Positions 46,931 to 50,398 of a stretch of 64,000 bases of DNA are shown piece after piece. The translations under genes were made by a program, and so were the position numbers. Each line of letters opens with the position of its first letter. Positions within the stretch are counted from its first letter, which is position 1. Source of the stretch: Octopus vulgaris. Its lineage: Eukaryota. The DNA lies in the NCBI GenBank assembly GCA_951406725.2, contig OX597816.1, positions 135,594,001 through 135,658,000 of the forward strand, in the 5' to 3' direction. The notes below the pieces were generated by a model, which did not search any database, was not told where the DNA came from, and saw only the letters and a list, made by a program, of their open reading frames with translations.

Positions 46931-47534
46931 GTGAGTATTTTGAAAAGCAGTATATTTTACATGTTATAGAATAATATAGAACCTTATATTCCAATATTTC
47001 ATCCAAAATATCAAAATTTACAGCACTATATCACAATAGTACATATAAATTACACATACATGTTACTAGGCTTCAATTAAGCCATTTATTTTTAATTAAG
47101 AAATAAATACTAATTTTAAAAAGAATAAACATTAAACAAAATAGGAATTATCAAATGAGTTTTTAGTTAGAAACAATATCTTTTTTGGATTCTACCATTC
47201 TTACAACATTTGCACCACTTTCATAGAGTTTGTTACCAAAACTTTTCACTTGAGACAAAGTGGTTGATTGGGATAGTTTACACCATTCAAATATGAATCA
47301 TCATCATCGCCATGTGATGCCCCATTTTATATGCTGGAATGGTTTAAACGGTTCGACAAAAACCAATGCGCCAGGTGTTTATACTGAGCTTCAATATCTG
47401 TTTCGAAATGGTTTCTACAGCTGGATGCCCTTCCTAATGCCATCCACTTTACAGAGTGTATTAGGTACTTTGTTTTCTGTGGCATCAGACTAACGATGTT
47501 GCCAAGTACTCACAAGGCAAGACCCCTCAATTGT

Positions 47535-47584
<50 letters not shown>

Positions 47585-48384
47585 TGTGCATGAGCATGTG
47601 TGTGTGCACACACATACACAACAGGCTTCTTTCATATCCACTTTGGTTAACCTGGATCTATCTTAACCCATGCAGTGGAACTGAGCCCAAAACCACATGG
47701 TTGGGAAGCAAACTTTTAACCACACAGCCACATCTGCTCTAAAAGAAAAAGCAATAGAACTATAAATGAAAAATTTTGCTTGTGTGTATGTGTGTGTGTG
47801 TGTGTGTGTGTATGTGTGTGTGTGAAAAATTTGGTCTGAAATTCATCATCATCATCATCATTGAAAAACCTTATTCTATGCTGGCATGGGTTGGATGGTT
47901 TGACAGGATCCTATGGAATGCATCGTGCTACAGTATCTGCTTTGACATAGTTTCTGTGGCTGGATGCTTTTACTAATGTCAACCACTTTACATCATGTAC
48001 TGGATGCTTTTTTTTTTTTTTTGTGCCATCAACACTGGTGAGGCCATCATGCAGTTTTTATGACCATCATCAGGCCATCATGCAGTTTTATGGGGCAACT
48101 TTATGCTAGGAGATGAGAGTAAAAGATGAATAAATGCTGAAGAGAAGGAACCAAGCAGAAGAGGTCTCTTGCTGTAGAAGAGTACCTTTAGAAAAGAGGA
48201 TGGGAGTGATCGTTTAGAACAAGAGAGCAATGAATGGCAAGCAGGAGTAGATGAGGTCTGACAGTGCTGAGCAGCAGAGTATTGATATTGTTACTTTTTC
48301 TTGTAATTTTCTCCATTTAAAACATATATTCTAATATATTTACTTATTTTTCTGTAAAAGTTAAGTTAAGTTTATTTTTTGGCT

Positions 48385-48722: not shown

Positions 48723-49293
48723 TTTCTAGGCATAGCTGTGTAGTAAAAAGTTTGCTTCCCAACCACATGGTTCCAGGTTCAATCCAACTGTTTGACACAC
48801 TTGGGCAAATGTCTTCTACTATTGCCTTAGACTGACCAAAGTGAGTGGATTTGATAGACAGAAACTGAAAAAGCCTGCTGTATATATATGTGTGCATGTG
48901 TGTGTGTGTGTGTGTCTTTGTGTATGTGTTTGTCCCCCACCACCACTTGACAACTGGTGTTGGTGTGTTTACATCACCATACCTTAGCAGTTTGGCAAAA
49001 GTGACCAAAATACCAAGCTTTACACAAAAAATAATAAGTACTTTGAACAATTCATTTTACTAAAATTCTTCAAGGCTGTACCCCAGCATGGTCGCAGACT
49101 AATGACTGAAACAAATAAAAGATAATGTCCTTTTTTTTTATTATTTTAGATTTACAACATGATTACTGATATATTTGTTTATTTGTACCCAAAAAGAAAG
49201 TAACAAATAGAAGCATCTCTGTTTTGGATTAATAAAATGACTATCCACAATCAACAATTTAGTTACTTTCGTAATTTGAATTATTTGTTTTAG

Positions 49294-49381
49294 GAGAGAT
49301 TACCCACTGGCCATTACTCCAAAGATGAGATTATTTGAGTGGACTTGCCGAAATAAAATGAAAGCCCCAATATACTGCACA
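49294..49381 (+). CDS. DUS2: DUS2 coding exon 12 (RDYPLAITPKMRLFEWTCRNKMKAPIYCT), dsRBD start
   Basis: ttttAG acceptor, GTGAGT donor; corresponds to YPAQITPKMCLLEWCRREKLAQPVYET. Confidence 0.94.
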
Positions 49382-49530
49382 GTGAGTCTGATTCTAAATT
49401 TTAACAAACCTTTTGCTACTTCTTTTCCTATTCCCACCACCTTTAATGTTTTTAACCCTTTCATTACCAAGTTTTCGTATACTTCTTTTGTTTCAACTAA
49501 TTTTGAAAATAATGAAGAATTTCTTAAAAT

Positions 49531-49817
49531 AACAATTGCAGCGTGGAAGGTGTTTATAAGCCATTTAAGAAAAACACAAAAACCTTTAGATTCACTTCAA
49601 CATTTAAATTTAATTTGTCAAAATATTTTCGTTGCTTTGAAACCGCGACCTGTTCACTGACAAAATTCCATGCAGCATGGAATTTTGTCAGTGAACAGGT
49701 CGTGGTCTCAAAGCAACGAAAATATTTTGACAAATTAAATTTAAATGTTGAAGTGAATCTAAAGGTTTTTGTGTTTTTCTTAAATGACTTATAAACACCT
49801 TCCATGCTGCAATTGTT
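49531..49817. repeat. 287-bp palindrome (143-bp arms, centre A49674)
   Basis: Arms differ at 4 positions by eye; mirror ORFs 49543+/49554- in the track. Confidence 0.95.
49684..49734 (+). ncRNA. Hammerhead-like motif with G3:C8 core variant (GUGAACA)
   Basis: Stem I TTTGTCA/TGACAAA; GTGAACA 49691-49697; extra G; stem II GTCGT/GCAAC; GAA; palindromic stem III AATATT; U at position 17. Mirror copy at 49614-49664 (-). Confidence 0.6.
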
Positions 49818-50324
49818 TTCGTTCCATCACAGGATTTCAGATCAGATCACTTGCTATGCAAGTACATCTCCATAATTTGTTAAAATAATTTTATCATTAT
49901 TAAGCTGGGATTTAGAACATAAATTAACATGGAATTTTCAATGAAAGCTTTAACTCTTTAGCAGTCTGATTATTCATTCACATTGTTTTGAATTAATCAT
50001 GCATTATCTGATAGCTTTGAGATTTTGATGAGGTAGCCACTAATATTTGGAATGACATTGTAGGGTTGGTGTCAGAGGCCAGATCTGGTCAGTTTGAACA
50101 TAAAACAGTTATGATATTTTGGCCGGATATGGCCAGTTTAAATGCTAAAGGGTTAATTTAAATCACCTTGAAACAACAAAGTTTTATCATAGAAACAAGG
50201 CAGTCTGCATGGATTGGTATCAAAAGGGCTAACATAGGAAAACAATCGACAAATACTGAAACTCACATAATGTATGTATTACTATCACTCCTCTCATTTT
50301 ACTTTTTCTTTCCTTCTTCTCCAG

Positions 50325-50398
50325 GTTGAACGACCTGATGATCGATGTTTTCACACTGTTCTGACTGTAGAAGACACAAAATATACTACACCCTTTTG
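50325..50398 (+). CDS. DUS2: DUS2 coding exon 13 (VERPDDRCFHTVLTVEDTKYTTPFW), dsRBD
   Basis: Long pyrimidine tract with ccAG acceptor, GTAAGT donor. Confidence 0.94.

Follow-up and report, generated by a model that had tools for sequence, protein, structure and literature searches.

The insertion described here lies in the genome of Octopus vulgaris, within a 64,000-nt stretch of contig OX597816.1 (assembly GCA_951406725.2, positions 135,594,001 to 135,658,000, forward strand) that we refer to as the window, and it is almost certainly the end of a Penelope-like element. Each of its two inverted arms carries a motif that we identify with high confidence as a hammerhead homolog, non-canonical in that the C3:G8 core pair of the consensus is replaced by a natural G3:C8 pair. 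The whole is best explained as the head-to-head double 5' end of such an element, with a compensatory G3:C8 core that probably retains weak cleavage, and we consider this account, taken in its entirety, to be reasonably probable. Its demonstrated parts are the link to an open reading frame (ORF) with reverse transcriptase (RT) and GIY-YIG domains, a tandem unit, two preferred 3' ends, a target duplication, and a swap at 3:8 that is accompanied by covariation of the stems. We name the parent family B1.

The insertion and its motif

The first-pass annotation of this DNA had reported a 287-bp palindrome, and its arms (49531-49673 and 49675-49817) are indeed 143 nt each and 97% complementary; the end it assigned to the element has to be moved, as the sense arm extends 58 nt past 49817 and the real insertion spans 49531-49875. 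A 15-bp target duplication with one mismatch (49518-49532 and 49874-49888) brackets this whole span. Both arms share the layout TTTGTCA-GTGAACA-G-GTCGY..GCAAC-GAA-AATATT-T-TGACAAA, and the GUGAACA core departs from CUGANGA at exactly positions 3 and 8 in each of them, as had been claimed. The features are as follows.

49518..49532, no strand: left target-site duplication, 15 bp, overlapping the element end by about 2 nt
49531..49673, minus strand: inverted arm, a copy of the 5' unit, ending at end-site 1 (about +148)
49614..49664, minus strand: G3:C8 minimal type I hammerhead motif of the left arm, G3 at 49657
49670..49875, plus strand: sense arm, B1 5' unit from about +3 to end-site 2 (about +206)
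49684..49734, plus strand: G3:C8 hammerhead motif of the right arm, G3 at 49691
49684-49690/49728-49734, plus strand: right-arm stem I
49691-49697, plus strand: right-arm core GTGAACA, with the extra G at 49698
49699-49703/49713-49717, plus strand: right-arm stem II, with one C-A mismatch
49718-49720, 49721-49726 and 49727, plus strand: right-arm GAA, palindromic AATATT and U17
49784..49875, plus strand: first 30 codons of the B1 RT/GIY-YIG ORF, ATG at 49784
49818..49875, plus strand: "tail" separating the two preferred 3' ends, present in one arm only
49874..49888, no strand: right target-site duplication
49294..49381, plus strand: host exon, first part of a DUS2-like double-stranded RNA-binding domain (dsRBD), from AG/GT ends, translation and PDB match

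The B1 motif has U4, G5 and A6, A9, G12, A13 and A14, the A15.1-U16.1 and G10.1-C11.1 pairs, H17, and three stems in the hammerhead order. The consensus C3 and G8 are absent: of 67 unbiased copies, 62 have G3 and C8. Genomic matches to the exact G3:C8 motif number 4,385 (none in the control), its C3:G8 version has none in the genome, and 10,309 were obtained for a 22-nt anchor lying outside the motif; the first and last of these figures count arms and not insertions. When 40,000 dinucleotide shuffles were made of the window unit and as many of a young copy, one of the former and none of the latter matched a descriptor, composed after the motif had been seen, that accepts every Watson-Crick 3:8 pair and keeps the stems at their observed lengths (3/40,000 with looser stem lengths). 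The C-A mismatch in stem II, which the first-pass annotation had entered as a caveat, is present in both window arms, although the site is G in 71 of 79 copies and the mismatch is therefore not the family state.

Searches for CUGANGA pass over this motif, as had been predicted. In Rfam, the 150 listed of 169 rows include no hammerhead and only hairpin-shaped microRNA models below their gathering scores; the descriptor of PMC4209133 demands cuganga. A relaxed G3:C8 pattern that excludes B1 and covers one stem III form gave 492 matches against 152 in the control; the first 100 of the 492 listed are decayed B1 copies, one other repeat that does not pair in stem II, and noise, with no second G3:C8 family among them. 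In viral contigs, 39 pattern matches were found, two of them marginal by their stems and the best with a model E value of 0.027, and we treat these as chance.

A Penelope-like parent element

The sense arm is 86% identical to the unit that precedes the ORF in locus L346, and since that locus runs from hammerhead motif through untranslated region (UTR) and ATG (92 nt after G3) into the ORF, the last 92 nt of the window copy are the first 30 codons of the B1 ORF. The frame opened by the ATG at 49784 continues into the ORF in L345 and L346, and aligns with the N-terminus of a sister family, B2. In all seven fetched regions with a B1 ORF of at least 646 codons a G3:C8 motif lies about 1 kb past the stop, with a perfect stem II in each; the other 13 fetched regions comprise six of family B2 and seven older or broken copies, two of which carry the motif. 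In L240, two same-strand motifs enclose a tandem unit of 4,261 bp, which indicates an arrangement of pseudo-long terminal repeats (pLTRs). The proposed Penelope association is thus upheld by the position of the motif both after the stop and before the L346 ATG, and the tandem copies beside RT/GIY-YIG ORFs that the annotation had suggested looking for do exist.

The proteins P0001/P0002 contain GAIG and YVDD motifs and match GIY-YIG at 25.4 bits (Pfam cut-off 22.6), and their RT is similar to a Neptune-type ORF (E 4e-9). The closest named homolog is an Octopus vulgaris protein (57%), and metagenome contigs yielded two short relatives, too short to extend to the motif. Insertions lie in AT-rich targets, with (TA)n flanks seen beside them. 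Against this assignment, neither B1 nor B2 matches Pfam RVT_1, and no fetched B1 copy shows an intact ORF from ATG to stop within a single copy; near-identical copies are the only sign of present B1 activity.

Other candidates were set aside. The Neptune-type family, returned by the first GIY-YIG search, has a different pLTR and a U3:A8 core. A non-LTR retrozyme would form short-monomer arrays, and none occurs among 49 mapped loci, where L040 is one spaced partial tandem and L036 one duplicated block. Tandem-spaced motif matches in L192 and L193 proved to be larger duplications.

The 3:8 swap in comparison with sister families

B2 is 54.7% identical to B1 in protein over 815 residues; it was retrieved through RT homology and not through the motif, and its hammerhead was spotted by eye. 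This hammerhead is C3:G8 and lies 135 nt upstream of the homologous ATG. B2 copies have the same two 3' ends as those of B1 and form tandem arrays with units of about 4.58 kb, and the B1 and B2 spacers otherwise have only simple repeats and the coding tail in common. We also note that in the youngest B2 subfamily (L234-L237, L251 and L252) C9 replaces the A9 of older copies, and that its 1,312-codon frame has a long Asn-rich insert.

A pattern demanding C3 and G8 gave 4,837 matches against 20 in the control, and among 14 single matches hand-picked for variety from the first 100 are further relatives as well as older copies of B2, which have CTGATGA. One of the 14, L370, has a CTGAAGA core, stem I GTCA/TGAC and a stem II starting GTCGC, so that positions 3 and 8 are all that separates its core from that of B1. 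Sixteen motifs picked by hand were aligned, and their 3:8 pair is C-G in ten and G-C in six and is never broken. Both sides change in five of the 12 pairs, and the covariation of 0.351 compares with 0.189 in shuffles and with no more than 0.128 when the partners are slid. Because the cores of related copies are distinguished by positions 3 and 8 alone, and their stems covary, G3:C8 is a natural compensatory swap, and a single event. C3:G8 being the consensus of the literature, we infer that G3:C8 is the derived state.

Several points weigh on the other side. For most C-G rows the search pattern itself demanded C3, G8 and the outer pairs of stem II, and these columns are therefore paired by construction, the six G-C rows are one lineage and hence one event, and RNAalifold predicts only stem II from the alignment; stem I fails in rows L377 and L378.

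The Neptune-type family (L110-L115, e.g. L111:5383) is young, with many intact 781-codon frames and an overlapping upstream ORF, and its hammerhead core is U3:A8, such that three types of 3:8 pair (G3:C8, C3:G8 and U3:A8) coexist in this genome. Further hammerhead motifs lie near GIY-YIG matches, near one end of L098, at L137:161 and in L083, and include an orphan U3:A8 with a long stem I and C3:G8 motifs with a 6-nt palindromic stem III.

Does the motif cleave?

We think it fairly probable, judging from the sequence, that the motif retains some self-cleavage, and the swap likely keeps a weak activity that depends on a dimer or on protein. The youngest ORF-bearing copies have flawless stems and no deviation elsewhere in the core, whereas loop II differs from one subfamily to the next; the two changes restore precisely the 3:8 pair, a third family of the genome has U3:A8, and the sister motifs share the U17 of B1. 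The double change C3G/G8C gives partial rescue in the anole element PAc (PMC11167929), and a review also gives partial rescue (PMC8495972).

An alternative that we hold to be unlikely, though it deserves serious weight, has the same Penelope origin and a G3:C8 motif that is catalytically dead or negligible, serving as a folded or protein-binding element or surviving as a relic that a successful lineage has carried along. The four observations given first above count against it, and a series of others count for it and against activity. The cleavage triplet of the motif is UUU, which is poorly cleaved. The first-pass annotation had expected a functional motif to be better conserved than its flanks across copies, and on this point it fails: B1 copies diverge at 14 of 735 core sites and 113 of 6,046 flank sites, 1.9% each. 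We read this equality as dead insertions decaying neutrally, and look to the comparison of families for the informative signal. Only one of 89 copies starts at the cut site, and its junction is ambiguous. Folding of the window arms is no better than that of shuffles (z -0.9). The swap requires two transversions by way of unpaired intermediates, and ribozyme mutants of PAc were without effect on insertion in vitro (PMC11167929).

Unpaired cores can also be copied, because copies with G3:G8 exist, and in one insertion both arms have it. A hand tally of 100 non-C8 matches, the first of 471, gave G3:U8 (48), G3:G8 (26), G3:A8 (16), C3:G8 (2) and others (8). That G3:G8 outnumber G3:A8 (examples are G000:C5:32609965-32610035, L358 and L166) is a separate observation, and the G3:G8 copies are possibly a small intermediate subfamily.

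Copy ends and the formation of palindromes

A genome search for the palindrome turned up 3,418 candidates; 40 of these were scored, and 19 were retrieved. In the fetched palindromes the centre varies and one arm is longer by about 58 nt, reaching a fixed end. Target duplications were found in nine of 15 testable insertions (four of the 19 loci were omitted for want of a tail match) as compared with eight of 210 mismatched-flank controls. Ends were then mapped in the first 100 anchor matches on contig C1, 89 of which passed duplicate and flank filters, although six of these share flanks and are not independent; L272, L276, L316, L317, L320 and L325 have the same junction and flanks, as passengers in a larger repeated block. 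The 3' ends fall at +144-151 or +205-210 in 78 of the 89, and 39 start at -2 to +4, with eight reaching further upstream and some starts near +16 likely being alignment stops at a subfamily site. Of 86 classified arms, 52 have an inverted partner and 34 have none, and 47 of the 52 paired arms (sample L256-L343) join one end site with the other, where one pair may count from both of its arms. The B2 palindromes that were viewed likewise have one end site per arm.

These statistics suggest how the insertions may form. The element RNA would begin close to the A of AGATGCAGC, a TATA-like box lying at about -30. The protein would nick both strands of an AT-rich target some 10-15 bp apart. Of the two complementary DNAs (cDNAs), one would start at about +148 and its partner at about +206, in each case within the first 30 codons of the ORF. 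Both cDNAs would run through an uncut hammerhead to the RNA 5' end and be joined there, and the ribozyme would act on tandem transcripts and would not set the ends of short copies. There are precedents in PAc, where two internal RT starts define the tail, both strands are extended, a dimer is predicted and uncut RNA serves as template (PMC11167929), and in a rotifer pLTR with a similar TATA and initiator (PMC3846280). The latter source favors self-priming on an antisense template for head-to-head junctions, and such priming may also have formed the junctions here.

A transcription start is favored over a splice site by the TATA-like run at about -30, by the lack of an AG/GT donor in 11/11 B1 spacers, and by 19 of 78 upstream contexts in which one more G precedes AG, the mark that a copied cap would be expected to leave. 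It is improbable, in our view, that the short copies derive instead from a separate non-autonomous master or from spliced RNA, their 5' end being a 3' splice site, CTAAC..TTTCTCAG/ATG. The upstream sequence does resemble a branch point and acceptor (1,018 matches), CAGAG ends four of 78 upstream contexts, the D. virilis Penelope intron ends at helix I (PMC4209133), and short units far outnumber ORF copies (10,309 anchor matches and 24 N-terminal matches). Set against this, the 11 B1 spacers also lack CAGAG, and young short copies and ORF-bearing copies have loop and UTR variants in common. A DNA-transposon miniature inverted-repeat transposable element (MITE) or foldback element with a chance hammerhead look-alike, an outcome that the first-pass annotation had itself raised, is hardly credible: a near-perfect palindrome of similar length does recur genome-wide, but its ends are asymmetric, its centre is variable, 34/86 arms have no inverted partner, the duplications are of variable length (10-15 bp), 0-1 of 40,000 shuffles match the motif, and the unit is continuous with an RT/GIY-YIG ORF. 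The loci L346 and L240 already refute this reading.

The host gene

In PDB, the exon at 49294-49381 matches chains of the tRNA-dihydrouridine synthase DUS2, in their dsRBD (E 1.2e-4), and Pfam searches with single host exons were negative; the first-pass annotation had placed the palindrome 150 nt downstream of a dsRBD exon, and this distance, from the exon end at 49381 to the left arm, is correct. The next DUS2-like exon lies at about 50325-50398, with the insertion in the intron between the two. The window copy itself, with a putative cut position after 49727, is likely inert because of its stem II mismatch and because the predicted fold of the host pre-mRNA locks it into one long 143-bp hairpin. 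For the host gene it is probably only an intronic hairpin, and as such a candidate substrate for adenosine-to-inosine editing. Elsewhere in the window, repeats at 47673-47728 and 48735-48790, and at 47388-47476 and 47927-48015, recur in many fetched loci and are probably common short interspersed nuclear elements of this genome.

Implications

The hammerheads of Penelope elements are nearly universal, yet weak in vitro and dispensable in the one system that has been reconstituted. A compensatory 3:8 swap between sister families offers comparative evidence for selection on the active fold, and B1 with its CUGAAGA relatives constitutes a matched natural pair for direct assay. We advance tentatively, and rate somewhat below an even chance, the fuller proposal that this is the first G3:C8 hammerhead to be both natural and active, that it is fixed in a Penelope family which has been mobile recently and numbers thousands of copies, with C3:G8 and U3:A8 families in the same genome, and that its core crossed a two-transversion valley and was re-selected. 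Were this so, selection would act on Penelope hammerheads and CUGANGA descriptors would miss a class of G3:C8 ribozymes. The swap also means that elements scored as hammerhead-less by cuganga descriptors deserve a re-scan. The end statistics are an in-genome test of the two-start, dimer insertion model, and they account for a palindrome that is common and might be catalogued by tools as a MITE. If the model is true, the pairing of one arm end of each kind is genomic evidence of a protein dimer that uses both RT starts in a single insertion.

Comparison with known systems

The natural G3:C8 core appears, provisionally, to be new. Natural U3-A8 hammerheads are reported in PMC3088659 and PMC4209133 and are the only natural 3:8 variant in the papers searched, and G3-C8 is present as a constructed variant in PMC3884650 and PMC11167929. 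No natural G3:C8 hammerhead was found in the literature searched, a set that omits most subscription papers and leaves the novelty provisional; the word "ribozyme" does not occur in the available portion of PMC13282606. The natural U3-A8 hammerheads (Perreault et al. 2011, PMC3088659) resemble B1 in showing natural 3:8 covariation, and G3:C8 is not listed in the portion of that paper available. The change to U3-A8 consists of two transitions with a wobble route, whereas that to the G3:C8 of B1 consists of two transversions.

The minimal type I hammerheads of metazoan Penelope elements (Cervera and De la Pena 2014, PMC4209133) have the same pLTR location as that of B1, the extra nucleotide after position 9, G10.1-C11.1 and a short palindromic stem III, and their elements likewise occur as dispersed single copies and opposite-strand pairs. 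They differ from the GUGAACA of B1 in having, in the text available, C3-G8 and U3-A8 only; four word-start GUGA matches in the alignment available are not cores.

The Poseidon element PAc of Anolis (Frangieh et al. 2024, PMC11167929) is similar to B1 in its hammerhead near the ORF start, in having a tail defined by two RT starts that fall within the N-terminal part of the ORF, and in its AT-rich targets. Its core is C3:G8, with G3:C8 present there only as the engineered partial-rescue mutant, and its tail is 30-40 nt, whereas B1 has its ATG 92 nt past G3 and a tail of about 58 nt. A further difference from PAc is the endonuclease linker of B1, which resembles that of Nematis.

The Nematis clade (Craig et al. 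2021, PMC8557442) resembles B1 in a short Cx3-4CxxC..C linker before GIY-YIG, with 14 residues in B1 from CxxC to Y.I.C as compared with 31 in the Neptune-type family of this genome, and an inverted 5' copy, a tail and (TA)n targets. The apparent likeness to the Nematis rows of Fig. S2 in that paper is one of motifs, and B1 has DKS where the same source gives DKG for canonical Penelope-like elements, for which it also gives a tail of 30-40 nt, shorter than that of B1. With the endonuclease-bearing (EN+) Penelope-like elements in general, B1 has in common a single ORF with RT plus GIY-YIG at its C-terminus, tandem pLTRs, an inverted 5' copy, a one-sided tail and a target duplication.
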